NCBI GenBank assembly: GCA_963792805.1
Contig: CAWBXN010000003.1
Coordinates: 38,879-102,878 of the forward strand
DNA length: 64,000 bases
Reading direction: 5' to 3'
From: an uncultured Actinomycetota bacterium
GTDB taxonomy: Bacteria; Actinomycetota; Actinomycetes; Jiangellales; Jiangellaceae
The notes under the pieces were generated by a model. The model made no database searches, had not been told where the DNA came from, and worked only from the letters and a program-made list of their open reading frames with translations. Positions 10,469 through 39,475 of this stretch are shown here, piece after piece (the first letter of the stretch is position 1; every line of letters starts with the position of its first letter). Both the position numbers and the translations under genes were made by a program.

Positions 10469-10988
10469 CGTCCATGCCGGGCTGGTACTCCTCCTCGCCG
10501 CCGGCGAAGTCCTTGGCCTGCGCCGTGAACTGCGTGGTCGAGCCGTCGGAGCACTCGAGCGTGACGGTGACGTCGTCGCCAGCGGCGATCGGGGCGGGGA
10601 TCTCCATCATCATGAGGTGGTCAGCACCTGGCTCCAGCATGGCCGCACCCCCAGCCGGGATGACGAAGCCGCCTTCCTTCGCCTGCATGACCATCTCGCC
10701 GTCGCTGTCGACGACCTCGTGCAGCTCCATGAAGGCGGCCGAGTCCGAGCTGGCAGCGACCACGTTGACCTCGGCATCGCTGCTGTTCTTGAGCATGCCG
10801 AAGGTCGCCGTCATCCCTTCCTCGGCTGCCTTGGTCCAGGCGTCCTCGGCAGCGATGGCCTCGCACGCGGTGCCGGTGCCGTCGGGAGCGGCACCGGCCG
10901 GCTCGGAGTCCTGGCTCCCGCAGGCGCTCACAGGAGCAGCCAGCAGGAGACCGGCTGACAGGGTCAGAATCGTTCGGTTGATACGCAT
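10455..10988 (-). CDS. copper chaperone PCu(A)C (DUF461) lipoprotein
   Basis: ATG at 10988 inside ORF 10455..11276. Lipobox LLLAAPVSACGS. Met/His copper motifs (FMELHEVV, GEMVMQ, GADHLMMMEI). Its 3' end overlaps the DyP start by 14 nt. Confidence 0.8.
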   Translation of the reverse strand: MRINRTILTLSAGLLLAAPVSACGSQDSEPAGAAPDGTGTACEAIAAEDAWTKAAEEGMTATFGMLKNSSDAEVNVVAASSDSAAFMELHEVVDSDGEMVMQAKEGGFVIPAGGAAMLEPGADHLMMMEIPAPIAAGDDVTVTLECSDGSTTQFTAQAKDFAGGEEEYQPGMDGEDA

Positions 10989-11095
10989 CGCAGGGTGCCT
11001 CTCGTGAAGGCGAGGTCTCACCGGTTCGGCGAGTCGGCCTCGTCGGTCGGGGGTTGGTCCCAGCGCGCGCAGACGGCGCCGAGACGTGCGGACGC

Positions 11096-16143: not shown

Positions 16144-16626
16144 ATGGAGAGGATCGCAGGGCTCCGGCCCGGGGCGCGCGCGGTCGCGCTGGCGTTCCTG
16201 GCCAGTGGCACCGTCCACCTCGTCCGTCCTTCGGTGTTCCGCCCGCTCGTCCCCCCGGCCCTGCCGGCCAAGGACGAGCTCATCCTGGTCACCGGCGTCG
16301 CCGAGCTCGCCTGCGCCATCGGCCTCGGGCGTGGTGCCCGCTGGGCCCCGGCGGCCAGCGTTGCCACCCTGCTCGCGGTCTGGCCGGGCAACTGGTGGAT
16401 GGCCATCGAGCTGCAGCGCCAGCCCACGTCTCCGCCGATGCTGCGGGCCGCGGCCTGGCTGCGGGTCCCCCTGCAGATCCCGATGATCCTGGCGGCACTC
16501 GACCCGGTGGCGCGCCGCGAGCCTTCGCTCACTGGTAGACCGTCATGGCGACACGAGCCGCATTGGGGATCGTCCCGTCGGAGACCAGTGCGACCCAACC
16601 GCCCCGCGAGAGCACCTGCTCGATGA
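16144..16626 (+). CDS. DoxX-like small membrane protein
   Basis: ORF 16144..16626. Hydrophobic helices with LASGTVHLVRPSVFRPLVPPALP and VWPGNWWMA, reminiscent of DoxX-like proteins. The C-terminal ~30 codons overlap the convergent gene and may not be conserved. Confidence 0.5.
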   Translation: MERIAGLRPGARAVALAFLASGTVHLVRPSVFRPLVPPALPAKDELILVTGVAELACAIGLGRGARWAPAASVATLLAVWPGNWWMAIELQRQPTSPPMLRAAAWLRVPLQIPMILAALDPVARREPSLTGRPSWRHEPHWGSSRRRPVRPNRPARAPAR

Positions 16627-17626
16627 GCTCGTCGACGGCGTCGTCGATCACGCCCGGCTCGGCCGGGTCTGCCGCCGGTTCGAGCGCCTCGGTCTGCGGG
16701 TCCAGGCGCGCCGGGTAGAAGAACCCCTCTTCCACCGCCAGCATCTCCGGTCGATCCCACGCTGCAGCCCGCCAGCAGTCGTCGATCCCCAGCACGGCGC
16801 GACGCTGGCCCGCTCGCTCCTCCACCAGTGCCAGGGCCTCTCTCTCACGGCCCCGCAGGTACTCCTCCAGGAGGGGGGCGCAGCGCCGGGACAGCTCGCT
16901 CAGCGGCGCCTCCGGGTGGTTGACGTGGATGGTCCCGGCAAGGCGCCGCAGGTTGTTCGACAGGCCGAGGAACGTCGACAACGTCGGGTCGGCAGCAGCC
17001 ACCACGAGTGGCGCGGGACGCAGCCGAGCGTAGGTCCCGAGCGACGTGTCGACCGTCCGCAGGAACGTCTCCGCGCTGCTGCCCCCGTCCGAGGCCAACG
17101 GGAAACCCGCGGTCCGCACCGGCGTCAGGTGGCCGAGGGCCGCATCGAAGAGCTTCGCCTCATCGGCGGCGAGGACGAGCAGCAGATGACGAGGGGTCCG
17201 GTGCAGGGCACGGACGAGGTCGCGGGTCGCGAAGGTCGGGTCCACCACGCACCGGGCCCGAACCAGGATCGGCAGATCCACCACGTCGCTGACATCACGG
17301 TTCACGAAGACCGCCAGCCCGTCGCGAACCGGGCGGTCGGCGAGCTCGGCGAGGGCCGCGTCGAGCCGGGCCAGCGTCTGCTCGAGATGCTCGGTCGGTT
17401 CCTGGCGCAGCCTGGTCGCGGCTTCGGCAGCGAGGGTCTCGAGCATCGCCCGGTCATCCTCGGTGAGCCGGTCCCCTGGTGTGGTGGGAAGCAGCAGGCT
17501 GACGCAGGGGTAGCCGCGGACGGACTGCAGCTGCATGACCGCTGCGGGGTCGAGCGGATGGACACGAAGCTGGGGCACGGGTTCCTCCTCGAGGACAAGT
17601 GGACGGGCCTCGAGGTCTCCTCCCAT
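16529..17626 (-). CDS. bacterial archaeo-eukaryotic release-factor-like (baeRF family) protein, tentative
   Basis: ORF 16529..17626. N-terminal pattern GYPCVSLLLPTTPGDRLTEDDRAMLETLAAEAATRL and the mid-region LAVFVNRD resemble baeRF3-type proteins as I recall them. An alternative GTG start at 17578 follows GAGGAGG. Confidence 0.45.
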   Translation of the reverse strand: MGGDLEARPLVLEEEPVPQLRVHPLDPAAVMQLQSVRGYPCVSLLLPTTPGDRLTEDDRAMLETLAAEAATRLRQEPTEHLEQTLARLDAALAELADRPVRDGLAVFVNRDVSDVVDLPILVRARCVVDPTFATRDLVRALHRTPRHLLLVLAADEAKLFDAALGHLTPVRTAGFPLASDGGSSAETFLRTVDTSLGTYARLRPAPLVVAAADPTLSTFLGLSNNLRRLAGTIHVNHPEAPLSELSRRCAPLLEEYLRGREREALALVEERAGQRRAVLGIDDCWRAAAWDRPEMLAVEEGFFYPARLDPQTEALEPAADPAEPGVIDDAVDELIEQVLSRGGWVALVSDGTIPNAARVAMTVYQ

Positions 17627-17805
17627 GCCATCCGGTGGCGGGCTCGGACCGAGTGCCGGGGCACTGTGCTGACGACCCGAGCGAGGGCCGCCACGGCGGC
17701 CCCGGAGTACTCCCCTCGTCCGAGGACGCTAGCGGAGCGGCCCGGCGCCGGCACCTTGGCGATGGCTCCGGTGGGCGCCCCCGACGGCCGGAGCACGATG
17801 GCATC

Positions 17806-18648
17806 GTGCTCATCCTGCTGCCGCCGTCGCAGGCCAAGGCTTCGCCCAGCCGCGGCCGTCCGCTGGACCTCGACCGGCTGCGCCTGCCCGCGCTGCACGA
17901 GCACCGCACCGCCGTCCTCGCCGCCCTCGTGCAGCTCTCACTGGGACCCGCGGCCGAGGCACGCCGCGTCCTAGGCCCTGGCCCGACGCAGCACGACGCC
18001 CTGCTTGGCAACGCCGGGCTGCCCTCGGCGCCGACCCGACCGGCTCGCGAGGTCGACCGCGGAGTGCTCGACGAGGCGTTGGGGCTGACTCGCCTCCCAG
18101 CTACCGCTGCTCGCCGGGCCTCCGCCTGGCTCCTGGTCTGCTCGGGCCTGTGGGGGGCGGTCCGTCCGGCTGACCGCATCCCGGCCCACCGGCTCCCCGG
18201 CTCGACGGTCCTGCCGGGCATCGGCCCGCTCGCGCGGTCCTGGCAGGGTCCACCGGCCCGGGCGTTCAGCACCTTGCCGCACTCCACGCGGTCGGGGCTG
18301 GTCCTCGACCTCCGCTCCAGCGCCTATGCCCCGATGCGGCGGCCGAGCCAGTCGATGGCTGAGCGCACGGTGACGGTGCGGGTCGTGCACGACCTGTCCT
18401 CCGGGGCAGGCAGCGCCGTGAGCCACCAGAACAAGGCGACCAAGGGCCGGCTGGCTCGGGGCCTCCTGCTCGATGGCGGAACCCCCCGGACAGGAGGCGA
18501 GCTGCGGGAACACCTGACCAGGTTGGGATGGACCGTCGCCGAGGGGCCACGACCCAACACCCTGGACGTGGCGCAGTGCCTGGCAGCGCAGTCAGGCAGG
18601 CTCGGTCCCTTCACGCGTTCCGTCGGAGGGTTCCGCCATCATTCGAAC
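17806..18648 (+). CDS. yaaA: YaaA (DUF328/UPF0246) peroxide-stress protein homologous segment, with no stop codon of its own
   Basis: GTG at 17806 gives VLILLPPSQAKASPSRG (YaaA opening LLPPSEGK). Similarity runs to about 18570 (NTLDV). The frame then continues without a stop into the HNH gene (single ORF 17599..20064). Confidence 0.7.
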
Positions 18649-20064
18649 ATGAGTTCGATCAGCCGTCCGGACGCCGTCCTCCACGGCGACCCGGGGGTCA
18701 GGTGCCCGGCGTCGGACATCGTCGACGGGCTCATTGGGGAGCTGCACACCACGCTGGGCCGCTTGTTGGCTGCACCGGCGGCCGCGACGGAATCGCGAGG
18801 CGATGTCGTGGCGAGACTGCTCCGAGCGCAGGCTCGCCTCGAGGCGGTGACGTTGACGGCGCTGGCGGCATTCGATGCGGTCGACGGTGCGACGGCGTCC
18901 GGGGACGGGTCGACCGCGGTCTGGCTGTCGCGTGCCACGACCACGTCCCCGGCGCAGGCCGCCGGCATGGTCCGCTCAGCCCGGGTACTCCACGAGCATC
19001 TGCCCGCTACCCGAGCCGCCCTCGCTGCTGGCGACATCTCGGGTCGGCATGCCAACGCCGTCGTCGCCGTCGTGGGGCGGGTCGGCGCACGTCACGCTCA
19101 AGCAGCCGAGCCTCTGCTCCTGGATCTGGCGCGGCGGGCGGAGCCCGGCGCGGTGCGGGCAGCCGGCCGCTACCTGCATGAGGTCTTGGATCCTGCCGGA
19201 GCGGAGCGGGCCTGCTCGCGTGAGTACGAGCGCCGCGGGGTCTCCTTCTCCATCTCTGGCTCCGGCTCTGGAGGCCGCGGGTACCTGGAGGGCGTGCTGG
19301 ACCCGGAGTCGGCTGAGCAGCTGCAGGCAGCATTGATGCCGCTCATGGCTCCGACGCCCGGTGACACCCGCACGGCCACGCAGCGTCGGGCCGATGCCCT
19401 GGTCGACCTGGCCAGGCGTGCCCTGGATGTGGGAGACCTGCCAGCCGTGACGGGAACCGGACAACGTCCGCACGTCTCGGTGGTCGTCGAGGCCTCGACC
19501 TTGGCCGGCGGGGGCGGGGTTGGTGTGCTGCCGTGGACGTCGGCTGCGATCGGATGGGGGTCGCTGCGAAGGCTGTCCTGCGACGCGCGGCTGACCCCGG
19601 TCCTCACCCGGCTCCACGGCTCCGGGACCGGCGGCGCGGGCGCGTGGCTGCCGATCGCCGTGGGTCGTTCCAGTCGAACGGTGACGCCGTCGCAGGCAGC
19701 GGCCCTCCGCGTGCGTGACGGTGGCTGCGTGATCCCCGGATGCAGCCGGACCTATGCCTTCACCCACGCCCACCACGTGCAGCACTGGGCGGACGGTGGG
19801 CCGACAGACCTGAACAACCTCGTGCTGCTGTGTGGCCACCATCACCGAGCCCTGCATCAGGGCCACTGGGTGGTGAGGCCGGTCGCCGACGGCGAGGGCT
19901 TCGAGGTCACCGATCGCCACGGACGCACGCAGCCGGCCCAGCACGCCGGTAATCGCGCTCCTCCGGCCGGGTTGGCGGCATCGCCGGATCCTGCGAGACC
20001 AGATCGCGGTCCGGGGAGCCCCGATCCTGGTGGGGCCCCCGCGACTGGCTTCCGCACGAGCTGA
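18649..20064 (+). CDS. DUF222-domain HNH endonuclease (REP13E12-type element protein)
   Basis: ATG at 18649 in the same frame as yaaA. DUF222-like N-terminal region. HNH motif CSRTYAFTHAHHVQHWADGGPTDLNNLVLLCGHHHRALH. Confidence 0.85.
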   Translation: MSSISRPDAVLHGDPGVRCPASDIVDGLIGELHTTLGRLLAAPAAATESRGDVVARLLRAQARLEAVTLTALAAFDAVDGATASGDGSTAVWLSRATTTSPAQAAGMVRSARVLHEHLPATRAALAAGDISGRHANAVVAVVGRVGARHAQAAEPLLLDLARRAEPGAVRAAGRYLHEVLDPAGAERACSREYERRGVSFSISGSGSGGRGYLEGVLDPESAEQLQAALMPLMAPTPGDTRTATQRRADALVDLARRALDVGDLPAVTGTGQRPHVSVVVEASTLAGGGGVGVLPWTSAAIGWGSLRRLSCDARLTPVLTRLHGSGTGGAGAWLPIAVGRSSRTVTPSQAAALRVRDGGCVIPGCSRTYAFTHAHHVQHWADGGPTDLNNLVLLCGHHHRALHQGHWVVRPVADGEGFEVTDRHGRTQPAQHAGNRAPPAGLAASPDPARPDRGPGSPDPGGAPATGFRTS

Positions 20065-21820: not shown

Positions 21821-22210
21821 CTAGGACGCGGTGGCTGAGTGAGCAACGATCCACGCAGCGATCTGTGGCACGTCGAGTTGGCCGGACGCCGCACTGAGCA
21901 TCAGGTCCTCGGCCTCGTCGACGGTGTAGGTCAGGTCCCGTCCGTTGAGCAGGCAGAAGACGCGTGCTGCCGACCATGCCAGTCGCTTGTTCCCATCCAC
22001 GAGCGCGCGATTGCGGACCGATGAGTGCAGCAGGGCCGCGGCCTTGTCCTCGAAGGTCGGGTAGGCGTCGTCACCGAAGACGGTGATCTGGGGGCGGGCC
22101 GTGGCTGCCTCCAGAAGGCCGGCGTCCCTGACCACCACGTGCTCGATCACTCCGGCGGCGATCTCGAGGAGGTCCTCGACCGAGAGGTAGTCGATCTCCG
22201 CAGCGTTCAC
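21821..22210 (-). CDS. death-on-curing (Doc/Fic-fold) family toxin
   Basis: ORF 21821..22210. Doc motif region HSSVRNRALVDGNKRLAW (GNKR core present, but the position of the conserved His is Arg). 129 aa. Overlaps the upstream antitoxin stop by 4 nt. Confidence 0.85.
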   Translation of the reverse strand: MNAAEIDYLSVEDLLEIAAGVIEHVVVRDAGLLEAATARPQITVFGDDAYPTFEDKAAALLHSSVRNRALVDGNKRLAWSAARVFCLLNGRDLTYTVDEAEDLMLSAASGQLDVPQIAAWIVAHSATAS

Positions 22211-22531: not shown

Positions 22532-22795
22532 TTAGGCGGATCGTTCGTGGTCGAGTCGTTCCAGGATCCAGGCACGGACGAGCGTCGAGGCGGGCAGGTG
22601 CTTGGCGGCGGCAACCCTTTGCACCTCGGCCTCTTCGTCGGCGCTGAGTCGGACGGAGTACACCTTCTGGCGGTTCGGTCGGCGGCCGGTCGTGCCGGCC
22701 GGGTAGGCCGCGTCCTTGGTCTGTTCGGATTCGCGGCGGAGCTGCTCGGCACGTGCTGGGTCAATCGTCTTGGCCATCGTCGTCTCCTTGCTCAT
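22532..22795 (-). CDS. RHH antitoxin, BrnA-like
   Basis: ORF 22532..22795. RHH core KVYSVRLSADEEAEVQRVAAAKHLPASTLVRAWILERL. Lies downstream of the putative toxin and overlaps it. Confidence 0.6.
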   Translation of the reverse strand: MSKETTMAKTIDPARAEQLRRESEQTKDAAYPAGTTGRRPNRQKVYSVRLSADEEAEVQRVAAAKHLPASTLVRAWILERLDHERSA

Positions 22796-23084
22796 ACAGT
22801 CTGATGTCCGCTCCGGTCGCGGACCAGGCGTTGATGCCGTGCAAGTCGCCGTCGAGGTCGCGGTAGGCGATCACGACCAGCACCCGACCGGCGGATCGGG
22901 AGTGGCCGATGAACCGTGACGCTCCCATCCGAGACTTGGGGTCGGGTTCGAACGCGAGGAGGTCCATGTCGTCCATCACCTCCTGAGCCCATGTCGGTTC
23001 GATGCCGACGCCGTCGGGGTACCGGTCGCCGCGGGAGCGGATGTAGGCGATGGCGTCGTTGCTCCACTGCATCGATTCGCCCAC
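22761..23084 (-). CDS. BrnT-like (DUF497-like) toxin, tentative
   Basis: ORF 22761..23084. Layout W..DAIAYI...(acidic linker)...IGHSRSAGRVLVVIAYRD....INAWSATGADIRLY resembles BrnT. Toxin-first gene order, as in BrnTA modules. Confidence 0.45.
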   Translation of the reverse strand: MGESMQWSNDAIAYIRSRGDRYPDGVGIEPTWAQEVMDDMDLLAFEPDPKSRMGASRFIGHSRSAGRVLVVIAYRDLDGDLHGINAWSATGADIRLYEQGDDDGQDD

Positions 23085-23152: not shown

Positions 23153-24067
23153 TCACACGCCGGCGACGTAGGCGGTGAGGAAGTGGACGCCGTGCCGGTC
23201 CAGGTTCCCGCGGGCGCGGTCGTCGTGCTCGGTGGTACGGGGGTCGGCGTGTCGGGCCAGGATCTGCGCATCACGCTGGGGGACGCCCGCGTCCAAGGCG
23301 TTGGTGACCGCGGCATGGCGCAGCGAGTGAGGACTGATGTGCCGCGGGATACCCGCGGTCGTCGCGATCGGGGTGACCATGCGGTAGGCGTCACGGCGGG
23401 TGATCGGCTTCCCGGACACCGGTCGAAGCACCAGCGGCCCGGAGGTGCGCTGGCCCCGGCAGGCTTCCAGGACCCGCAGCACCGGCACGGTGAGGGGCAT
23501 GGTGGCCGGCTTGTTGCCCTTGCCGACCAGAAGGAGCACCCGGTGCCCGCGCAGGGTGTCGGCGTCGTGCTCGATGTGGACGGCGGCGGCCTCCGACGCG
23601 CGCAAGGCATTGATCCCGAGCAGGAAGGCCAGGGCGCCGTGGTGCACGCTCACCGTCTGGGCTACCTGCAGGAAGCGGATCAGCTCGAGTCGGTCCAGTC
23701 CCTGGGTGCGCGACTCGTCCCGCTGCACCCTCGGCAGCCGCGCCTACACAACCGGGTCGGCGGTGATCAGCCCGTCGACGTGGGCGAAGCGGAAGAACCC
23801 CCGCACCCCGTGCAACATCGTCACCACGGAGGAGTCCATCAGCCCCCGCTCTCCCAGGCCACGGATGTACAGCTCGACGTGGGCACGTTGGATCCCGACC
23901 AGCGGGTCCAGCCCATGGCGCTCGCACCAGGCGAACCACTCCCGCAGCTGGAAGGCGTACAAGGCGTGGGTCCGCCCGGAGTAGCGGGCCAAGAACGACT
24001 CCGCCGCCAACTGGGCGGTCGACATCCGCGACGGCTGGAACGGCAGCAAGGTCGTCGCACCGGACAT
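23153..24067 (-). pseudogene. tyrosine recombinase/phage integrase interrupted by one in-frame TAG
   Basis: ORFs 23744..24067 (SAM-like N-domain) and 23153..23728 (catalytic domain with ALRASE, HSLRHA, terminal Tyr in LTAYVAGV) are in the same frame. They are separated only by TAG at 23744-23746 (...ITADPVV*ARLPRVQRDESRTQGL). Confidence 0.8.
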
Positions 24068-24366: not shown

Positions 24367-25188
24367 TCAGCTTTGAGTCTGCGCGAGTCCTGTCTGCGGA
24401 TCGGGGGCAAGGTCAGGCCGCTGCAGGTGCCACCCGCTGAGGGCGGCCGCCGCGGCCATCACTACCTGCACCGCCGGCCAGGCTGGTGACACACCGACGA
24501 GCACAACCACAGCCGGGACGAGCGCTGAGGCGACCGCAACGATCCACGACCGTCGACGCTCGACGCCTGCCACCGATGCCAGCACCAGCCCGGTCAGCAG
24601 ACCCGCGAACATCGTCGGGACTACCCAACCGAGCGCGTCATCGACGGGGCCCAGCAGGTCGACCCCGACGATGCCGGACACCAGCATCGACGCCGCCACC
24701 GACACCGGGATCCCCAGCAGAAGCACCAGGTCGAGCCGCCTTGTCGCAGGATTTGGTGGCTCCAGCGAGCCTGCGCCCCACACACCAAGCACCGTCGCCG
24801 CCGCGACGATCAGCACCTGCAGCCACACGGCGGTGACCATCACCGCCCCAGCCGCTGCTACACCGACCAGCAGCATCACCGGCCAGGCCCGCACTCCGGC
24901 TACTCGAGCGACTGCCAGGCCCGCAACGACGCCGACCGGCGCCACCCACATCCATCCGAGGACACTGTCGGGGTACGTCAGCACCGTTCCCGGCTCGGCG
25001 ACGAACGTCCAGCCTGCTGCGCCCTCCTCCCACCCCCCTTGTGCCACATAGGGCTCCCGCCATATCGCGTACGCCATTCCCGCCGTGTACGCGACTGCCG
25101 CCGCGACGACCGGACTGATCGCCACAGCGAACCAGCATCGCCGCCGTGAGGTCCGTGACACCTCACAGCCACGGGTCGCAGGCGTCAT
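24367..25188 (-). CDS. hypothetical polytopic membrane protein (island cargo)
   Basis: ORF 24367..25188. About 7 hydrophobic helices rich in Ala/Val/Gly. No family recognised. Confidence 0.45.
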   Translation of the reverse strand: MTPATRGCEVSRTSRRRCWFAVAISPVVAAAVAYTAGMAYAIWREPYVAQGGWEEGAAGWTFVAEPGTVLTYPDSVLGWMWVAPVGVVAGLAVARVAGVRAWPVMLLVGVAAAGAVMVTAVWLQVLIVAAATVLGVWGAGSLEPPNPATRRLDLVLLLGIPVSVAASMLVSGIVGVDLLGPVDDALGWVVPTMFAGLLTGLVLASVAGVERRRSWIVAVASALVPAVVVLVGVSPAWPAVQVVMAAAAALSGWHLQRPDLAPDPQTGLAQTQS

Positions 25189-25295: not shown

Positions 25296-26725
25296 ACGGC
25301 CGAGACTGTCCGGAACAACGGTGTAACTGGCCCAACTCGCCGACCGGTGGTCGGCAGGAAGGTCGGTTGTGATGACCGAGACACTGGCGGGCATGAGCTC
25401 GCTGAAGAAGGCCATGACGAAGACGGCCACGCCGGCGGATGCTGAGCGTGCCGCGGTGCGGGAGCTGGTCAGGTCGGCCCGCGCGCGTGGTGAGGATCTG
25501 ACCGGGCCTGACGGCCTGTTGAAGGGGATCACCAAACAGGTCTTGGAGGCCGCGCTCGAGGAGGAGATGACCGAGCACGTCGGGTATGACAAGCATGCCG
25601 TTCAGGGACACAACAGCGGCAACTCCCGCAACGGCACGAGGACCAAGACGGTGCTGACCGACAACGCCGGCGAGGTGCAGGTGCAGGTGCCGCGGGACCG
25701 TGACGGCACCTTCGCACCGGTGATCGTCAGGAAACGGCAGCGTCGGTTGTCCGACGTCGACGCGGTGGTGCTGTCGCTGTACGCCCGTGGGCTCACCACG
25801 GGGGAGATCTCGGCGCACTTCGCCGAGGTGTACGGGGCGTCGGTGTGCAAAGACACGGTCTCGCGGATCACCGACCGGGTGATCGAGGACATGCAGGTCT
25901 GGTCCTCGCGGCCGCTGCAGGGCGTGTACGCGGTGATCTTCATCGACGCAATCATGGTGAAGGTCCGCGACGGCCAGGTCGGCAACCAGCCGTTCTACGC
26001 CGCCATCGGGGTCGATCTGCGTGGTCACCGCGACGTGCTCGGCCTGTGGTCCGGAAATGGTGGCGGAGAGTCGGCAAAGTTCTGGATGAACGTGCTCACC
26101 GACATCAAGAACCGCGGCGTGCACGACGTGTTCTTCATCGTGTGCGACGGGCTGAAGGGCCTGCCCGACAGCGTGAGCGCCGTCTTCCCGGCAGCGATCG
26201 TGCAGGCATGCATCATCCACCTGATCCGCGGGACGTTCCGCTACGCCTCCAAGCGCTACTGGGACCAGCTCGCCAAGGACCTGCGACCCATCTACACCGC
26301 CCCGAACGCTGAGGCCGCGTGGGCGGCGTTCGAGGAGCTGGAGGAGAAATGGGGCAAGGCCTACCCGGCCATCCCCAAGCTGTGGCGCAACGCCTGGAAC
26401 GAGTTCATTCCCTTCCTCGACTACGACGTGGAGATCAGACGCGTGCTGTGCTCGACGAACGCGATCGAGTCGCTCAACGCCCGCTACCGGCGGGCCGTGA
26501 ACACCAAAGGACACTTCCCCACCGAGCAGGCCGCACTCAAGACCCTGTACCTGGTCACCCGATCCCTGGACCCAAAGGGCCTCGGACAGGCACGATGGGT
26601 TACCCGGTGGAAGCCAGCACTCAACGCCTTCGCCATCACCTTCGCCGACCGCATGCCGGCCGCGGAGACCCTGTAATGATCAACACCGGTTACACCGTTC
26701 GTCGGACAGACCCGATTTCGGCCGT
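25296..26725 (+). mobile_element. IS256-family insertion sequence
   Basis: Single transposase gene flanked by imperfect inverted repeats: GACTGTCCGGAACAACGGTGTAACTGG (25304..25330) and the reverse complement of 26686..26711 (GTCTGTCCGACGAACGGTGTAACCGG). An outer ACGGCCGA/TCGGCCGT pair lies at 25296 and 26725. Exact ends and target duplication are not resolved. Confidence 0.8.
25369..26676 (+). CDS. IS256-family (Mutator-type) transposase
   Basis: ORF 25369..26676, 435 aa. Typical IS256 transposase sequence (LKGITKQVLEAALEEEMTEHVGYDKH, RNGTRTKTV, FIDAIMVKVRDG, CDGLKGLPD, NAIESLNARYRR). Confidence 0.95.
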   Translation: MMTETLAGMSSLKKAMTKTATPADAERAAVRELVRSARARGEDLTGPDGLLKGITKQVLEAALEEEMTEHVGYDKHAVQGHNSGNSRNGTRTKTVLTDNAGEVQVQVPRDRDGTFAPVIVRKRQRRLSDVDAVVLSLYARGLTTGEISAHFAEVYGASVCKDTVSRITDRVIEDMQVWSSRPLQGVYAVIFIDAIMVKVRDGQVGNQPFYAAIGVDLRGHRDVLGLWSGNGGGESAKFWMNVLTDIKNRGVHDVFFIVCDGLKGLPDSVSAVFPAAIVQACIIHLIRGTFRYASKRYWDQLAKDLRPIYTAPNAEAAWAAFEELEEKWGKAYPAIPKLWRNAWNEFIPFLDYDVEIRRVLCSTNAIESLNARYRRAVNTKGHFPTEQAALKTLYLVTRSLDPKGLGQARWVTRWKPALNAFAITFADRMPAAETL

Positions 26726-26944
26726 CGTTGACAGAAGGAACGGTCGTGATCGGCTTTGCGATATCCAGGCAGAGCCACTCGAGTGGGCGTTGGTCCGTTC
26801 GGGCACGCCCCAGTACTCGATTGGGCACAAATGACTCCGGCCGACCACATCCCGCGGCCTTGAGGCTAGGCTTCGGCACACGAATGCGCGGCTATCGCGA
26901 GCGTCAGGCGGCGACGCAATCGATGCTGACGATCAGAGGTTTGA

Positions 26945-27946
26945 GTGACGTCGGGCACGAATAGAGTGGAGATGGTGAGATTGCGCACATTTGCGCATGA
27001 CCCTGCCGACACCCCGGAGGCTGCTCGCCCTCGGGTGCTTCCGACTCACCCGGAGCGCGTCGACAACAATGCTCTGGTGGCCGCGTCCATCGTGTCGATG
27101 CAGCGCCTGGCCGGCAACCGGGCGGTGGCGAGTCTGCTGAGAACCGAGTCGACCGACGAGCGAGGGCGGCCGGATGCGGACGCCCAGCCGTCACCAGCGC
27201 CGCGAGATGTTGGTGTGGAAACCGGTCGCGCGGCATCGGCTGCCCGCCGCGCCGTTTCAACTGACGGGCGCGGCGTGGACGACGAGATCGCGGACAGTCG
27301 TCAGCTTGTTCAGCGCCAGGGCGGTGGCGCGCCTGCCGGACCAACGACTCCGATTGCGGTACGCAACGGCCCAGGCCACGTGCCGATCGACACCGCGGCC
27401 GCTGCCGGGATGGCGATCGACATCACCTTGACCTCCTCGACCGGCGTGGATGCGGACATGGCCGCCATCCTCGACAGCGAGCAGGTCAGTTCGTCGGTCA
27501 ATCACACGGGTTCGTATTCCAAGGTCCCGTCCCGTCGCAGCAACAACAGCGGGTATATGCCCGGCCACCCCATCCCCGCCGACCGCCACAGTGAGTCCAA
27601 AGCCGATATCATCGACACTGCGGACAATCACGGCGGGAACGGGAGCTTCGAACGGCTCCAGCTCGACACCTGGAAACCGAACGCAGCGGGCGCAGAGGCC
27701 GCAATTCCGAATTCCGGATATTTCATCAAGCGGAGCATCATCACGAACGGCACGGGAATCCGATACCGGACCGAGAAGGGTCCTCGCGCGGTCTCTGCGA
27801 ACGGGTTCAGCAGCACCGCGGGGCCTTCGCCGGTGCAGGCGGAGGAGGTCGAGGTCAGGCCACCCGCAGCCGCCCCGGCACCGGCTGCGCCGAAAGCCGC
27901 CAGCCCCGGCAAGTGGAAGAGGTTCCTGAAGTGGCTCGGACTCTGA
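26945..27946 (+). CDS. hypothetical protein with LQRLAGNRAVASLL-type N-terminal leader, unknown central domain and Ala/Pro-rich basic tail
   Basis: ORF 26945..27946 in a visibly lower-GC stretch. Leader MQRLAGNRAVASLL at about residues 52-65. Start uncertain (GTG 26945, ATG 26972 or TTG 26981). No catalytic motif recognised. Tail PPAAAPAPAAPKAASPGKWKRFLKWLGL. Confidence 0.6.
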   Translation: MTSGTNRVEMVRLRTFAHDPADTPEAARPRVLPTHPERVDNNALVAASIVSMQRLAGNRAVASLLRTESTDERGRPDADAQPSPAPRDVGVETGRAASAARRAVSTDGRGVDDEIADSRQLVQRQGGGAPAGPTTPIAVRNGPGHVPIDTAAAAGMAIDITLTSSTGVDADMAAILDSEQVSSSVNHTGSYSKVPSRRSNNSGYMPGHPIPADRHSESKADIIDTADNHGGNGSFERLQLDTWKPNAAGAEAAIPNSGYFIKRSIITNGTGIRYRTEKGPRAVSANGFSSTAGPSPVQAEEVEVRPPAAAPAPAAPKAASPGKWKRFLKWLGL

Positions 27947-27956
27947 GGAGGGCACG

Positions 27957-28415
27957 ATGCAGGACGGAGCCTCATTTCGCAAGGTCGCCCCGTTGCTGTC
28001 ACTACGACCAGAGGACGAGCAGCTGCTCGCGACGTACGACTCGTTCGACGACAGGGGAGTACCCGCGAACGGGTATCGCATCACGCTGTTGACCGCGACG
28101 CCCTCGATCGCGGTCAACGAGGTGGTCGGGATCGTGCATGTGTGCGAGTCGGTCTCGGACGATGCACCTTTGTATGTGATGGGCCCGAAGCCGGTCTGGG
28201 GTGAGTACGTCGACGGCGTGCTGGCCACCGATCCGTCGCCGACGCCGAGCAATCCGTTCGAGCTGGCCTCCTACGACGGACGCGTGCTGCCCGGACCGGG
28301 AATTGATGGCAACTACGAGGTCACCCAGTACCAATTCAGTGAGCCAGGTGTGCACACAGTTCAGTGGCGGCTGGAGCCCACCGTCTCGAACATGCTGCGG
28401 TTCACGGTATCTTGA
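27957..28415 (+). CDS. hypothetical 152-aa protein translationally coupled to 26945..27946
   Basis: ORF 27957..28415. The ATG lies 10 nt after the upstream stop, and the SD GAGGAGG overlaps that stop. Same low-GC composition. No signal peptide, TM segment or known motif. Confidence 0.55.
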   Translation: MQDGASFRKVAPLLSLRPEDEQLLATYDSFDDRGVPANGYRITLLTATPSIAVNEVVGIVHVCESVSDDAPLYVMGPKPVWGEYVDGVLATDPSPTPSNPFELASYDGRVLPGPGIDGNYEVTQYQFSEPGVHTVQWRLEPTVSNMLRFTVS

Positions 28416-28601
28416 CAGGCCGGGAGTGACAATTCTGTCCTGCCGGCCACGGGCGCCTTTTGGCGTGTTTCTTCATCGCCAATTGGTATACCGACCAAGC
28501 GGTACAAGCCGAACCAGGTCGCATCGTTGAATCGCATGCCAACATTCAGTGGGACCTTCGCCTATCCGCTCAAGGCAACAGTGGGTCACCTGGCTTCCAT
28601 G

Positions 28602-28887: not shown

Positions 28888-30372
28888 TCAGTCTCTCGCC
28901 ATATTCACGAATCGGCTGTAGTGCCCCTGGAAGGCGACCGTCACGGTGCTCGTCGGGCCGTTGCGGTGCTTGGCGACGATGAAGTCCGCCTCGCCGGCCC
29001 GGGGAGACTCCCGCTCGTAGGCGTCCTCACGGTGGAGAAGGATGACCATGTCGGCGTCCTGCTCCAGCGAGCCCGACTCGCGGAGGTCCGAGAGCATCGG
29101 CTTCTTGTCGGTGCGTTGCTCCGGGCCACGGTTGAGCTGCGAGAGCGCCACCACCGGCACCTGGAGCTCCTTGGCCAACAGCTTCAGCGACCGCGAGAAC
29201 TCGCTCACCTCGACCTGGCGGGACTCCACCCGCTTACCCGAGGTCATGAGCTGCAGGTAGTCGATGATGACAAGGCGGAGCTCGTTGCGCTGCTTGAGCC
29301 GGCGGCACTTCGCCCGAATCTCCATCATGGTCATGTTCGGTGAGTCGTCGACGAAGAACGGCGCGCTCTCGACTCTGCCGACCGTGCGCGCGATGCGATC
29401 CCAGTCAGCCTCGCTCATCGTGCCGCTACGCATGTGGTGCAGCGGCACCTTCGACTCCGCCGAGAGCATCCGCATGGTGATCTCCGAGCGGCCCATCTCC
29501 AAGGAGAACATCACCGAGGTCTGACCGGCCGTGATGGCGGCGGCCCGAGCGATGTCGAGTGCGAGCGTGGACTTCCCGATGGCCGGGCGGGCGGCGATGA
29601 TCACGAGCTGGCCGGGGTGCAGGCCGTTGGTCAGGGAGTCCAGGTCGTCGAAGCCGGTGGGCACGCCCACCATCTCGCCACCGCGCGAGCCGATGAGCTC
29701 GATCTCGTTGAGCGTGCCCTCAATGATCTCCGCGATCGGCAAGTAGTCCTCGGCCGTGCGACGCTCGGTGACGGCGTACACCTCGGCCTGGGCCCGGTCG
29801 ACCACGGCATCGACCTCCCCCTCCCCGGAGTAGCCCATCTGGGTGATCCGGGTACCGGCCTCGACGAGGCGTCGCAGCACCGCCTGGTCGTGGACGATCT
29901 CGGCGTAGTAGGCAGCGTTGGCGGCGGTCGGTACGCCGGACACCAGGGTGTGGACGTAGGGAGCTCCGCCGATTCGCGTCAGCTCACCGAGCTTGGTGAG
30001 CTCGGCGCACAGGGTCACCGGGTCAGCCGGCTCGCCGCGGCCGTAGAGCTCGAGGACGGTGTCGTAGATCGTCTCGTGCGCCGGTCGGTAGAAGTCCCCC
30101 CCTCGCAAGACCTCGACCACGTCGGCAATGGCGTCCTTCGACAGCAGCATCGCCCCAAGCACGGACTGCTCAGCGGCGACGTCCTGCGGCGGCATCCGGT
30201 CAAAGGTGGGCCCACCCGTAGGCCCACCAGTCGGACCGGTCGCACCCGCCGGTGACTGCCGCTGCGACGAGAGCTCGGCAAGGCTGATGGCGTCCACCCC
30301 CTCTCGTCGGTTCGTCCACGAACGCGGGCCGCGCTGCACGCTCCGTAGCCGACTCTGCTCGCGTGCCGTCAT
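28888..30372 (-). CDS. dnaB: replicative DNA helicase DnaB
   Basis: ORF 28888..30372. PPQDVAAEQSVLGAMLLSKDAI N-domain and Walker A IIAARPAIGKSTLALD. 494 aa, contiguous, no intein. Confidence 0.95.
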   Translation of the reverse strand: MTAREQSRLRSVQRGPRSWTNRREGVDAISLAELSSQRQSPAGATGPTGGPTGGPTFDRMPPQDVAAEQSVLGAMLLSKDAIADVVEVLRGGDFYRPAHETIYDTVLELYGRGEPADPVTLCAELTKLGELTRIGGAPYVHTLVSGVPTAANAAYYAEIVHDQAVLRRLVEAGTRITQMGYSGEGEVDAVVDRAQAEVYAVTERRTAEDYLPIAEIIEGTLNEIELIGSRGGEMVGVPTGFDDLDSLTNGLHPGQLVIIAARPAIGKSTLALDIARAAAITAGQTSVMFSLEMGRSEITMRMLSAESKVPLHHMRSGTMSEADWDRIARTVGRVESAPFFVDDSPNMTMMEIRAKCRRLKQRNELRLVIIDYLQLMTSGKRVESRQVEVSEFSRSLKLLAKELQVPVVALSQLNRGPEQRTDKKPMLSDLRESGSLEQDADMVILLHREDAYERESPRAGEADFIVAKHRNGPTSTVTVAFQGHYSRFVNMARD

Positions 30373-30991: not shown

Positions 30992-31837
30992 TCAGGCGAC
31001 GGGCTGGTCCTGACGCTGACCTGCCGGTGCCGGGTCGACAGCCGAACCCATCTCCGAGGCTTCGAACGCCGCGTCGTAGAAGAAGCTCTTCTTACGCGCG
31101 ATCTTGTAGATGAGCAGGCCGAACACGGCCTTGGCGACGACGTCCGCGATGGCGTAGCCAACGTTGCGCAGGACGAACGCGTCCGCCCCGTCGAACCCGA
31201 CCATCGGGAACAGGTAGGCGATCGGGTAGACGCCCCACGTGGCCACGAGCACCCAGCGCAGGTTCTTGATGTTGCGCACGACCGGGGCGGGCTGGCGCTC
31301 GATCGACCGGGTGAGCTCGCCGAAGAGGACCCAGAGGATGTAGAGGAAGGGAATGGTGGACAGGGCCCCCCAGATGCCGCGGGTGAGGTTGTCGGTGGCG
31401 ATCTCGCCCGGGTAGCCCAGCGCGATCATCAGCGCCGAGGCGGGGACGAGCCGGATCAAGAGTCGGTTGGCGTCCTGGCGGGCGAGTGCGAGGATGGCGA
31501 CGGTCTCGACGAGCAGCAGCGGGACCGTCAGGAACCAGTCGACGTAGCGGTAGAGCTCGTTGAATGCCACCCCCTCCGCCAGGCGATAGCTGCCCTGCCC
31601 ACCGACGGCGTCGGTGACGTACGCCTCCTGGAAGTTGGCGAAGATCCGCAGGTAGTGGTAGGCGGCGATGCCGGTCACCATGGCCGAGATCGCGACTGCC
31701 TGGCGGTAGCGGGGAAGGACCCTGGGCAGGGAGACGAGCAGGAAGAGCGTCGCGAACAGCATGCTCGCGACGACGAACGAGAACGAGTTGTAGACGAGGT
31801 CGAACTGACCCTTGGTCAGTTCTTCTACTCCCACCAT
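30992..31837 (-). CDS. type-1 microbial rhodopsin, proteorhodopsin/xanthorhodopsin/actinorhodopsin-like (DTE motif, predicted outward proton pump)
   Basis: ORF 30992..31837. ATG preceded by AACAGGAGGCATC. Seven hydrophobic helices. Helix B AAYHYLRIF. Helix C RYVDWFLTVPLLLVE gives D/T/E at the PR D97/T101/E108 positions and Leu at the PR-105 position. Helix G YAIADVVAKAVFG carries the Schiff-base Lys four residues after the Asp. Confidence 0.9.
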   Translation of the reverse strand: MVGVEELTKGQFDLVYNSFSFVVASMLFATLFLLVSLPRVLPRYRQAVAISAMVTGIAAYHYLRIFANFQEAYVTDAVGGQGSYRLAEGVAFNELYRYVDWFLTVPLLLVETVAILALARQDANRLLIRLVPASALMIALGYPGEIATDNLTRGIWGALSTIPFLYILWVLFGELTRSIERQPAPVVRNIKNLRWVLVATWGVYPIAYLFPMVGFDGADAFVLRNVGYAIADVVAKAVFGLLIYKIARKKSFFYDAAFEASEMGSAVDPAPAGQRQDQPVA

Positions 31838-37241: not shown

Positions 37242-39475
37242 GCCCCCGGCCCGGCCCTGGCGAAACCCGTGGCCTGGGCCTGCTGCTCACCCGTGGACGG
37301 TCCATCGCTGCCGGTGCCGCCGGGAACAACGGCATCGCCGTCACCCGGCGCTTGCGCCGGCGGGTCCTCGGGCCCGTCGGTCGGCGGCGGGGTATCGGTC
37401 GGCTCGGGGGTCTGTGTCGGCTCGGGGGTCTGTGTCGGCTCGGGGGTCTGTGTCGGCTCGGGGGTCTGCGTCGGCTCAGGGGTCTCGGTGAAGGTCGGGC
37501 TGGGCGTGCTCGTCGGCGTGACCGACGGGCTCGTCGTCGTCCCGACCCCGGCCGGGGGAGCGAACTGCTCGATGGGCTCGTCGGCCAGCGCCGCGAGCAT
37601 GAACGCCGTCCACGTCCGGGTCGGGTACTCGCCGCCGAAGAACGTCGAGAGGCCACCGACGCCGTCGAGGTCATCGCTCGGGGTGCACTCGTACCGGCAG
37701 AAGCCGACTGCGGTCGAGAGCTGGGGGGTGAAGCCGACGAACCAGCTGGACCCGGTGACCCCGTCCTCGCCCGCAGTCCCGGTCTTGCCGGCGGCGGGTC
37801 GACCGAGCGCCAGCGCCGCGCCACCGGTCCCGTTCGTGACCACGCCCTGCAGCGCGCTGGTGACGTCGGCGGCCACGTCGGCCTCGAAAGCCTGCTCGGT
37901 GTCCGGTCGAGCCCGGAGCAGCACCTTGCCGCCGGAGTCGGCGACGCGGCTCACGGTGTAGGGCTGAGCAAGCACCCCACCGGCCGGGAACGCCGCGTAG
38001 GAGCCGGCCATGACCGTCGGAGTGACGACCGAGGTCCCCAGCGTGATGCGCACGTCGGGGTACAAGCCCGTCGGCTGACCATCGGGGCGCTTGGTCGGGA
38101 TGCCGGAGTCGATGGCAGCCCGGCGTACCTGGTCCGGCCCCACCGTCATCGCGAGGTCGGCGAAGGCGGTGTTGATCGACTGGGCGGTGGCGTAGCGCAT
38201 GTCGACGATCGCGCCGTAGCTCTGCCCGAACTCGTTGCGAATGGTGTTCGTCTCTGGGTTGGTGTCGCCGGGGACGACGTAGGGCGAGTTGCCCTGGAAG
38301 CCACTGCTGAGACTGATGCCGTCCTGCAGCCCGGCGACCAGGGTGAACGCCTTCATCGTGGAGCCCGCCTGCATCCATCCCTGGGTGGCGTAGTTGAAGG
38401 GCTGCTTGACGTAGTTCGGCCCCCCGTACATCGCCACGACCTCGCCGGTGCCCGGGCGGACCGAGGACAGCCCGACGTGAACGCCGTCGGTGTCGATGGT
38501 CGGGAACTGGTCCCGCACCGCCTGCACAGCGGCTCGCTGGGCGGCCCGCTCGAATGTCGACTCGACCCGCAGCCCGCCGGAGTCGATCTCGGCGTCGGTG
38601 AAGCCGAGCGCGAGGAGCTCCTCTCGCACGGTGGCCAGCAGGTAGCCGTCGGTGCCCCCGAGGGTGTTGCCGGTTGGCGGGTCGGCCAGCTTCGGCAAGC
38701 GCATCGTCGCGGCCTTGTCCGAATCCAGCTCACCGATCTCGACCATCCCGTCCAGGACGTACTCGAACCGGTCCTGAAGACGCTGCTTGGCCTCCTTGCC
38801 ACCAGTGGCGGGGTCGTAGCTGGTCGGGCTCTGGATCACGGCAGCCAAGACAGCGCCCTCACGGACCGAGATGTCCTCGATGTCCTCGTCGAACCAGGCC
38901 TGAGCGCCGGTCTGGACCCCGTAGGCGCCGCGACCGAAGTAGATGGTGTTCAGGTAGTCCTCGAGGATCTGGTCCTTGCTCACCGTCGCGTCGATCTTGA
39001 TGGCCAGCACGATCTCGCGGACCTTGCGGACGACGGTCTGGTCCTGGGTGAGGTAGTAGTTCTTGACGTACTGCTGGGTGATGGTCGAGCCACCCTGGGT
39101 CGCACCACCGGTCAGGTTGTTCCAGGCAGCACGGGCGATCCCGGTGACGGAGACCCCGGCGTTCTCGTAGAAGCTGCGGTCCTCCGCAGCGACGACCGCG
39201 GCCTCGACGTGGTCGGGAATCTGGTCGATCGTGACGGGGATGCGGTTCTCGGTGCTGAACTGGCCGAGCTCGCTCCTCCCGCCGGCGAAGGTGACGATCG
39301 TCGTCTCGCTGGTCGCGAAGTCGTTGGCCTCGGGAACGTCGATGGTGAACCAGAAGTAGGCCATCAGGCCCGCGCCGAGCAACACGAGCGCACCGAGGAA
39401 CCACCCGAACCAGCGCAGCGCACGGCGGGTGCGCGACGGCTTTGCCTTCGCCGGAGCGCCAGAACGGCTTGCCAC
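37238..39475 (-). CDS. ponA: class A penicillin-binding protein (transglycosylase/transpeptidase, PBP1A)
   Basis: ORF 37238..39778 with a likely GTG at 39475, 9 nt after GAGGAGG. Glycosyltransferase motifs EDRSFYENAGV and RKVREIVLAIK. Transpeptidase motifs STMK, SIN and KTGT. Pro/Thr-rich C-terminal tail. Confidence 0.9.
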   Translation of the reverse strand: MASRSGAPAKAKPSRTRRALRWFGWFLGALVLLGAGLMAYFWFTIDVPEANDFATSETTIVTFAGGRSELGQFSTENRIPVTIDQIPDHVEAAVVAAEDRSFYENAGVSVTGIARAAWNNLTGGATQGGSTITQQYVKNYYLTQDQTVVRKVREIVLAIKIDATVSKDQILEDYLNTIYFGRGAYGVQTGAQAWFDEDIEDISVREGAVLAAVIQSPTSYDPATGGKEAKQRLQDRFEYVLDGMVEIGELDSDKAATMRLPKLADPPTGNTLGGTDGYLLATVREELLALGFTDAEIDSGGLRVESTFERAAQRAAVQAVRDQFPTIDTDGVHVGLSSVRPGTGEVVAMYGGPNYVKQPFNYATQGWMQAGSTMKAFTLVAGLQDGISLSSGFQGNSPYVVPGDTNPETNTIRNEFGQSYGAIVDMRYATAQSINTAFADLAMTVGPDQVRRAAIDSGIPTKRPDGQPTGLYPDVRITLGTSVVTPTVMAGSYAAFPAGGVLAQPYTVSRVADSGGKVLLRARPDTEQAFEADVAADVTSALQGVVTNGTGGAALALGRPAAGKTGTAGEDGVTGSSWFVGFTPQLSTAVGFCRYECTPSDDLDGVGGLSTFFGGEYPTRTWTAFMLAALADEPIEQFAPPAGVGTTTSPSVTPTSTPSPTFTETPEPTQTPEPTQTPEPTQTPEPTQTPEPTDTPPPTDGPEDPPAQAPGDGDAVVPGGTGSDGPSTGEQQAQATGFARAGPGA
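37398..37487. repeat. 18-bp tandem repeat (3 perfect plus 2 degenerate copies of GTCGGCTCGGGGGTCTGT) encoding PEPTQT units in the PBP tail
   Basis: Units at 37398, 37416 and 37434 are identical. Units at 37452 and 37470 carry 1 and 3 mismatches. Translation on the minus strand is TPEPTQTPEPTQTPEPTQTPEPTQTPEPTDT. Confidence 0.9.

Follow-up and report, generated by a model that had tools for sequence, protein, structure and literature searches.

The contig CAWBXN010000003.1 of an uncultured Actinomycetota bacterium (Jiangellaceae; assembly GCA_963792805.1) carries a small two-gene cassette between an IS256 element and dnaB, within the 64,000-nt stretch that we analysed (positions 38,879 to 102,878 of the forward strand; referred to here as the window). 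The two genes, referred to as A (upstream) and B (downstream), raise the question of what kind of system they form. A first reading made from the letters alone, here called the original prediction, had proposed a horizontally acquired effector/partner pair with a novel C-terminal module. This interpretation was supported, and none of the tests by which the prediction proposed to refute itself went against it. We think it reasonably probable that A-B is an orphan polymorphic effector of the type associated with extracellular contractile injection systems (eCIS), together with its immunity protein.

The A and B families and their pairing

Both open reading frames (ORFs), with the protein strings quoted in the prediction, were present in the ORF list, and the cassette lay where it had been described, the IS256 ORF ending at 26676 and dnaB occupying 28888-30372. 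Neither A nor B had a credible match in Pfam, NCBIfam, PHROGs or PADLOC, single-sequence and profile searches against PDB sequences returned none, and the named relatives are all annotated as 'hypothetical protein'. Both families appear to be new, as they are in none of the libraries searched, and the matches to housekeeping families that would have counted against the prediction were not seen for either protein. The close homologues (55 of A and 52 of B) came nearly all from soil-type metagenomes and metagenome-assembled genomes (MAGs), with none found in plasmid records, and A and B are themselves unrelated (hhalign probability 0.1%). When aligned, the A homologues showed a variable N-terminus, an LxLQRxAGNRAV motif (here called the leader), a DGRG...DxR element and a conserved domain of ~170 residues (here called the A domain). 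A profile of this domain detected 174 clusters among 1.84 billion cluster representatives.

Linkage of the two genes was sampled at 15 loci from a species-representative genome collection, and B was found directly 3′ of A at 12 of them, in four phyla. The 12 loci include Jatrophihabitantaceae, Paractinoplanes, Cellulomonas, Arthrobacter, three Nitrosospira, Kofleriaceae, a delta-proteobacterial MAG and Terriglobia, the paired loci thereby spanning Actinomycetota, Nitrosospira, Myxococcota/delta-proteobacteria and Terriglobia; the stop of A and the start of B at these other loci often overlap (4 nt) or abut. The pair also recurs on several metagenome contigs and in Georgenia, and 11 contigs, matched by their equal lengths, are apparently common to the homologue lists of A and B. 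This is the co-localisation that the prediction had made a test of the pair. No A-B fusion protein was found. In Nitrosospira, a second gene encoding a leader and eCIS_core, with a different C-terminus, has no B behind it. In these gene orders, B tracks the A domain.

The closest relative of the cassette (locus L003) resembles the window across the cassette only (27090-28408), the neighbourhoods being otherwise unrelated. With flanks so unrelated, it is the two-gene unit that is conserved and mobile. The GC content is 0.709 in the window, 0.668 in A, 0.625 in B and 0.61–0.62 in the flanking non-coding DNA. The GC content of third codon positions (GC3), 0.889 ± 0.031 in a background of 35 other window genes, falls to 0.766 in A (z = −3.9) and to 0.791 in B (z = −3.1). 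The compositional drop of the cassette is real and modest, and the drop below background that had been read by eye, with its quoted low-GC run at 27710-27750, was borne out. Neighbouring genes encode a baeRF protein, a DUF222-HNH protein, a Fic/Doc toxin, a split integrase, a membrane protein and the IS256 transposase. Since the GC3 deviates, the similarity to L003 is confined to the cassette and the neighbours are mobile genes, the sequence points to horizontal acquisition of the cassette, as had been proposed.

Two mutually syntenic Acidobacteriaceae loci without B (L013 and L017) have a conserved ~100-aa helical ORF (…RRLQMVVNMV…LFWPRLQRLMRERYRMQ) behind A, at 10616-11059 and 10745-11062, respectively, which is either an alternative partner or an unrelated neighbour. 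Separately, the A genes of two MAGs (10001-10520 in L015 and 10001-10515 in L017) look frameshifted within the domain, each giving two tblastn segments in different frames; these could be pseudogenes or long-read assembly errors.

Relatives of the cassette beside eCIS operons

In Nitrosospira sp. Nl5 (L011), the genes run in the order Baseplate_J, a 429-aa gene, a Tail_P2_I-like gene, a 342-aa gene and a WHD-AAA+ ATPase, and continue with a 1174-aa A-type protein (leader, eCIS_core, transmembrane segment, A domain), B, a 957-aa protein with leader and eCIS_core, and DUF4280. Loci L007 and L009 are arranged in the same way. In Arthrobacter wenxiniae (L006), genes for a sheath, a gp19-type tube, a baseplate-like protein, Pvc16_N and a WHD-AAA+ protein are found 365 nt past A-B, and in an actinomycete MAG (L015) Baseplate_J and DUF4157-like genes lie upstream of the pair. 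An eCIS structural operon lies within about 10 genes of the pair at L006, L007, L009, L011 and L015. By gene content, three independent lineages place the module beside eCIS structural genes, in the position of an eCIS-associated toxin (EAT) (PMC8213781). The link with eCIS, which the original prediction had mentioned, was in this way shown for the relatives in Nitrosospira, A. wenxiniae and the actinomycete MAG.

The second leader-bearing eCIS_core protein of the Nitrosospira loci has ~950 aa and an unannotated C-terminus (11164-15135 in L011, 11187-14030 in L009 and from ~11116 in L007). This second effector-type gene is followed by the DUF4280 (PAAR-like) gene and a 140-aa ORF; the eCIS operon thus has effector genes in a tandem array at its 3′ end.

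The pair adjoining a contractile injection system (CIS) operon in A. wenxiniae would also suit another explanation, at which A is a membrane-acting cargo that a cytoplasmic actinobacterial CIS directs at the producer itself, as in Streptomyces (cell death/differentiation), with B as a regulator. The actinobacterial CIS effectors studied so far hit the membrane or DNA of the producer and are DUF4157-linked (PMC11126660, PMC13277306), many actinobacterial A proteins have Gly-zipper membrane segments, and actinobacterial B proteins lack an export signal. However, A-B is also present in Nitrosospira, in Myxococcota-type bacteria, in Terriglobia and as orphan cassettes with unrelated surroundings, which fits inter-cellular conflict with horizontal spread, and the presence of orphan B genes suggests defence against incoming A. 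Hence we would give self-directed action a low probability.

The leader region of A

A loading region with an LQRxxGNxAV-type leader and without a Sec/Tat signal is a feature of eCIS cargo, and A has a putative region of this kind: its N-terminal part looks disordered, as judged from composition, and the protein has no hydrophobic segment and no Sec/Tat signal. The leader was found at about residue 35–45 in 40 of the 41 A-family members that match the motif, and its core is 95% identical at the DNA level to that of L003, with diverged flanks. The Pfam search of A gave no match at E ≤ 1, thus no eCIS_core (PF13699), and a search of the whole window for leader and HExxH patterns matched only A's own leader and no HExxH; in the literature, eCIS_core counts as optional for cargo. 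These scans agree with the earlier statement that the leader is present with no HExxH or known toxin domain behind it. The element D[GA]RG was found in 22 of 41 leader-bearing and 18 of 45 leaderless A-family members, and in none of 61 other leader-bearing ORFs. As for the C-terminal tail of A, which had been described as amphipathic and basic, it is basic (net charge +4) and its amphipathic character did not hold, since 26% of shuffles reach its helical hydrophobic moment of 0.46.

The leader was also examined independently of A. A strict leader regular expression, run over the window and 22 loci (436 kb, six frames), matched A-family genes and the second Nitrosospira eCIS_core gene only. The back-translated LQRxxGNRAV DNA pattern gave chance matches only in 2.9 million viral contigs and at least 120 matches in metagenomes; among the matches listed, 100 of 120 lay close to the N-terminal end of a long ORF, with the motif extending past the searched positions. 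A census set was made of the 61 complete metagenome ORFs among the matches listed, chosen by the leader DNA pattern alone. The last 160 residues of these ORFs formed 54 unrelated clusters, none of which was the A domain. Thirteen of the 61 carry eCIS_core (PF13699), and others carry EndoU, Endonuclea_NS_2, Tlde1, Peptidase_M15_4, YkuD or peptidoglycan-binding domains, so that the enrichment of the leader on toxin-like proteins, a further test set by the prediction, was found in a set assembled without reference to A. A leader-only profile search of a large database was uninformative, giving just 84 scored candidates of 64–81 aa each. Because hypervariable C-termini, eCIS_core and toxin domains are found behind it, the leader marks the N-termini of an eCIS-linked class of polymorphic effectors.

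The A domain

We aligned 189 members locally to a hidden Markov model of the A domain. No more than 15 aa follow the domain in 153 of them (81%), a tail of 16–70 aa follows in 25 (13%) and more than 70 aa in 11; as 81% end at the domain and 13% have a short tail only, most A proteins have no other candidate payload. The domain stands behind at least four distinct N-terminal architectures. Actinobacterial A proteins have the short leader alone or the leader with a Gly-zipper, those of Nitrosospira (~1200 aa) have leader, eCIS_core, a long helical region, a transmembrane hairpin and poly-Pro, the Kofleriaceae MAG protein has a double eCIS_core, and acidobacterial proteins have (GS)n linkers. In certain members the N-terminus of DUF4157 survives in degenerate form, as 'FGxDFSxIPVH'. 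Among the 96 longer members searched against Pfam, eCIS_core (PF13699) was by far the most frequent fusion partner (23/96), and single members carry DUF4280 (PAAR-like), PG_binding_1, OmpA, Amidase_6 or peptidases. A hydrophobic, Gly-zipper or transmembrane segment was detected in about one third of members (54/160), mostly just upstream of the domain. From these arrangements the A domain is most readily seen as a modular C-terminal payload.

Residues invariant in the A homologues are D177-S-E179, H187-T-G, D213-x-H215, D227, Q239-x-D241, S257-G-Y, R263 and K278, of which the wider superfamily retains E179, D213, H215, Q239, S257, G258 and K278. The highly confident AlphaFold2 (AF2) model of the domain (pLDDT 96.9, pTM 0.90) shows a beta-rich fold that has long hairpins along with three short helices. 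Foldseek searches against PDB and BFVD gave no match with E ≤ 0.001; the best PDB match had E = 0.066 and a TM-score of about 0.33, and the top matches were FXIIIa beta-barrel domains and LEA14 (TM-score about 0.33–0.40). According to this model, the putative payload would have no structural neighbour in PDB or BFVD, that is, among solved and viral structures, and the C-terminal module is as uncharacterised after these and the library searches as it had been described.

Several known activities were considered for the domain and rejected. A LAS/VanX-type D-Ala-D-Ala peptidase (NF007557) was matched at E = 0.028 only, with 14 bits against a cut-off of 176; the Asp of 'GMAIDITL' (D158) is not conserved (consensus I-A-I-T) and has no His before it, the Zn-ligand pattern SxHxxGxAxD is lacking, and no LAS structure was among the Foldseek matches. 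The sole match to an aerolysin/ETX-MTX2-like beta-pore-forming toxin was Cry51Aa2 (E = 4.0, TM-score 0.13). For an ADP-ribosyltransferase (R-S-E, H-Y-E) and for a PD-(D/E)xK nuclease, the motif spacing did not fit, the candidate residues (E277 and K244) were unconserved and no fold of either kind was matched. An anti-phage or phage family was likewise not indicated, with no PADLOC match and one PHROG match (E = 0.039) over 29 linker residues.

Protein B and the role of the pair

The B homologues share invariant H61, E64, M75-G-P-K78, E83 and D86, and a near-invariant YDGR. The AF2 model of B (pLDDT 93.1) is an Ig-like beta-sandwich, for which Foldseek returned generic CARDB/Ig-like domains only. 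Export signals are rare in B, being found in about 2 of 52 database homologues and at two delta-/myxobacterial loci. Lipoprotein-type B was also found as an orphan without an A gene, and by analogy such orphan B genes resemble orphan immunity genes.

Perhaps the most serious alternative to an effector with its immunity protein is a cargo-adaptor pair, at which the A domain would be a non-toxic accessory module (for binding, membrane association or pre-toxin processing) and B a chaperone or loading adaptor. Distant members place an A-like domain after eCIS_core and before Amidase_6, Peptidase_C2 or M35-like domains, as pre-toxin or adaptor-binding modules would be placed; A and B are both beta-sandwich-like with no recognisable catalytic fold; B mostly lacks an export signal and would be in the cytoplasm, where loading occurs; and the Gly-zipper and transmembrane segments adjoining the domain are of the kind that type VI secretion system chaperones shield. 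However, most of these proteins have no other payload candidate, given how many of them end at the domain or shortly after it, and the A protein of the window has no transmembrane or Gly-zipper segment and B is still kept. Exported, lipoprotein-type and orphan B proteins make no sense as cytoplasmic loading chaperones, and the polar residues conserved across the superfamily suggest an active or ligand site. We therefore regard the cargo-adaptor explanation as rather unlikely.

If A-B is instead an effector with its immunity protein, the leader region of A would, by analogy with the cargo of AlgoCIS, serve for loading, its recognition being assisted by the eCIS AAA+ ATPase. AlgoCIS cargo is loaded by means of the AAA+ ATPase and needs its disordered N-terminus for this, but not DUF4157, its C-terminal domain being the effector (bioRxiv 10.64898/2026.05.27.728243). 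Because loading there needs the disordered N-terminus and not DUF4157, a leader-only short form such as the A protein of the window is plausible as cargo. The ~170-residue beta-rich A domain would be the payload, with the conserved polar residues E179, D213, H215, Q239, S257 and K278 forming a catalytic or a ligand- or metal-binding site and not a scaffold. The role of B would be to bind the A domain and so neutralise it, both in the producer and in injected kin cells. The target may be the cell envelope or a membrane, as Gly-zipper and transmembrane segments recur, peptidoglycan-binding and OmpA domains are now and then fused or adjacent, and B is occasionally exported. On the other hand, the mostly signal-less B argues for neutralisation in the cytoplasm, contrary to such a target.

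A DGR peptide is common to the DGRG...DxR element of A and the YDGR of B, which is perhaps a coincidence and perhaps mimicry, in cis and in trans, at one site of the A domain. A bolder version of the proposal builds on this: the A domain would be a new enzymatic or ligand-binding effector fold at the membrane or envelope, with a mode of action new to contractile-injection cargo, and be controlled by the DGR peptide through the DGRG element in cis and the YDGR loop of B in trans, with immunity by pro-peptide mimicry. We put it forward as a speculation that is unlikely to be right.

Several observations weigh against an eCIS effector with its immunity protein. No homologue of the Nitrosospira or Arthrobacter sheath, tube, baseplate, terminator or ATPase genes was found in the 64-kb window, no eCIS structural gene was detected within 10 kb of most actinobacterial relatives, and the A protein of the window has no eCIS_core domain. 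The fold of the A domain gives no pointer to an activity in the Foldseek searches of PDB and BFVD. Some of the 11 long-tailed members have a second enzymatic domain behind the A-like domain (Amidase_6, calpain-like Peptidase_C2 or M35-like) and others run on into Ig-like repeats, so that these 11 of 189 proteins do not have the A-like domain as their terminal warhead. B is missing at three acidobacterial-type loci that have A. Moreover, the polar residues of B are more invariant than is usual in an immunity protein, and the compartment of B is inconsistent, as most B proteins are signal-less and a few from delta-/myxobacteria have a signal or a lipoprotein-like N-terminus. Lastly, it is by inference, for every member of both families, that we regard A as toxic, particle-loaded and neutralised by B, and that we name a target.

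Anatomy and neighbourhood of the locus

The features of the cassette are listed in Table 1. The stop codon of A (TGA, 27944-27946) and the start of B (ATG, 27957) are separated by a gap of 10 nt and the GAGGAGG site overlaps that stop, both as read in the original prediction; the ATG begins 5 nt past the end of the site. This overlap of the ribosome-binding site with the stop of A suggests that translation of the two genes is coupled. The 188-aa NCBI gene call for A (P0001) begins within the conserved domain and is almost certainly too short, since the homologues keep the leader upstream of its start. No sigma-70-like promoter was found upstream of A. The terminator consensus scan gave one site, against a mean of 1.1 in shuffled sequences, which is not significant alone.

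Table 1 Features of the A-B cassette (positions are those of the window)
Feature	Position	Strand	Remarks
Gene A	26945..27946	+	333 aa, GTG start; in the ORF list and supported by 55 homologues; an independent gene caller also gave 333 aa
Gene B	27957..28415	+	152 aa, ATG start; in the ORF list and supported by 52 homologues
AGAGG Shine-Dalgarno-like site	26934..26938	+	5 nt upstream of the GTG of A; read from the sequence
Possible alternative start of A	ATG 26972	+	Read from the sequence
Leader motif VSMQRLAGNRAV	27092..27127	+	Residues 50-61 of A, within the low-complexity N-terminal region (residues 1-133)
DGRG...DSR motif	27263..27301	+	Residues 107-119 of A; specific to the A family, between leader and domain
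C-terminal A domain	27344..27862	+	Residues ~134-306; alignments, AF2 model, Foldseek and cluster search
Ala/Pro linker and basic tail GKWKRFLKWLGL	27863..27943	+	Present in the closest relatives only (alignment)
GAGGAGG Shine-Dalgarno site of B	27945..27951	+	Overlaps the stop of A; read from the sequence
YDGR of B	28272-28283	+	Residues 106-109; near-invariant in the B alignment
Weak terminator-like hairpin with T-run	28453..28476	+	38 nt past the stop of B; consensus scan

The IS256 transposase ORF (25369-26676) is bordered by inverted repeats at 25317-25330 and 26686-26699, and the cassette begins ~230 nt past the end of the element. On the other side, dnaB (28888-30372, minus strand) is convergent with the cassette. 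No second IS256 copy was found in the 64-kb window, and a scan of the window detected no Rfam family.

A cassette that arrived on mobile DNA may also be a non-functional remnant, decaying in a genome with no cognate injection system. The lack of eCIS genes in the 64 kb, the islet with IS256 and the split integrase, the codon usage that is not ameliorated to the host, the missing promoter-like sequence and the frameshifted look of the relatives L015 and L017 would all fit this. However, both ORFs are intact, have good Shine-Dalgarno sites with their coupling preserved and keep all the invariant residues of both families; furthermore, the genome beyond the window may encode a CIS, and the frameshifts in the MAGs may be assembly errors. 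It is quite improbable, in our opinion, that A-B is such a remnant, and we retain the effector with its immunity protein as the preferred explanation.

The region on the dnaB-distal side of IS256 holds several other genes. A tyrosine recombinase is split into a Phage_integrase catalytic ORF and an N-terminal SAM-like ORF (23153-23728 and 23744-24067, both on the minus strand), likely a disrupted integrase that marks the edge of a mobile islet with IS256 and A-B. A 129-aa Fic/Doc protein (21821-22210, minus strand; PF02661, E = 4e-11) and small unannotated ORFs (22532-23084, minus strand) may form a Doc-type toxin-antitoxin module in the same islet. A 273-aa hydrophobic-rich ORF with no Pfam match (24367-25188, minus strand), immediately upstream of IS256, encodes a putative multi-pass membrane protein. 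Further away, a baeRF family-3 protein (bacterial eRF1-like; 16529-17626, minus strand) adjoins a long ORF (17599-20064, plus strand) that matches YaaA-like, DUF222 and HNH endonuclease families and in which the ORF call has probably joined two genes; the 17.6–21.8 kb stretch fails the GC3 filter of gene calling. Past dnaB, and before the rplI/rpsR/ssb-like genes, lies the gene of a 281-aa bacteriorhodopsin-like protein (30992-31837, minus strand; PF01036, E = 4.5e-42), probably a light-driven pump of the actinorhodopsin type.

Comparison with known systems

What eCIS deliver is largely unknown, as about half of the predicted toxins have an unannotated C-terminus behind an N-terminus of the DUF4157 type (PMC11297309). 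The A-B pair clearly defines one candidate eCIS payload family, with about 174 clusters in at least four phyla, a dedicated partner and polar residues that can be mutated, and the A domain is found in nature within eCIS operons as well as in cassettes that stand alone. The pair would be a ready experimental system for finding a new toxin activity, and the minimal, DUF4157-less leader of A is a candidate loading tag for engineered injection systems.

DUF4157 is known N-terminal to diverse toxins at the 3′ ends of eCIS operons, with linkers sometimes longer than 1000 aa (PMC8213781), and about half of the predicted eCIS toxins carry it, mostly with an unannotated C-terminus (PMC11297309). Like these EATs (Geller et al. 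2021, PMC8213781; Danov et al. 2024, PMC11297309) and like Cgo1/Cgo2 of AlgoCIS, A has an N-terminus rich in Pro, Arg, Ala and acidic residues with an LQRxxGNxAV leader, and the C-terminal module is variable in its class as in theirs; relatives with the A domain have eCIS_core and are encoded after the AAA+ ATPase, where an eCIS operon has its 3′ end. Unlike them, the A protein of the window has no eCIS_core (HExxH) and is away from an eCIS operon, its C-terminal domain belongs to no described toxin family and matches no structure in PDB or BFVD, and its gene is followed by a conserved partner gene, which many EATs lack.

With polymorphic toxin-immunity systems of the Zhang/Aravind type (PMC4436062), the A class shares a conserved N-terminal trafficking element with hypervariable, interchangeable C-termini (54 clusters in 61 ORFs), and a coupled small downstream gene which is found across taxa, co-varies with the C-terminal domain, has orphan copies and spreads horizontally. 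The A protein of the window differs in having no RHS, filamentous-haemagglutinin, LXG or PAAR carrier and no known Tox/Ntox domain, and the immunity role of B is putative.

The Tme-type CIS effectors of Streptomyces consist of DUF4157, a coiled coil, transmembrane helices and a C-terminal toxin (PMC11126660). The long Nitrosospira relatives share this layout of DUF4157, helical region, transmembrane helices and C-terminal domain, with the A domain in place of the EndA-like nuclease, whereas the A protein of the window is a 333-aa short form without tape-measure-like parts. The periplasm-acting PT6 (Nachmias et al., bioRxiv 10.1101/2021.10.19.465003) is, like the A domain, C-terminal, DUF4157-fused and found in Actinobacteria and Proteobacteria, but the two are unlikely to be the same, being set apart by length (85 aa in a Moraxella Rhs protein against ~170 aa). 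The kind of system at hand, an eCIS-type polymorphic effector with a downstream partner, is a known one, and both of its protein families are new.

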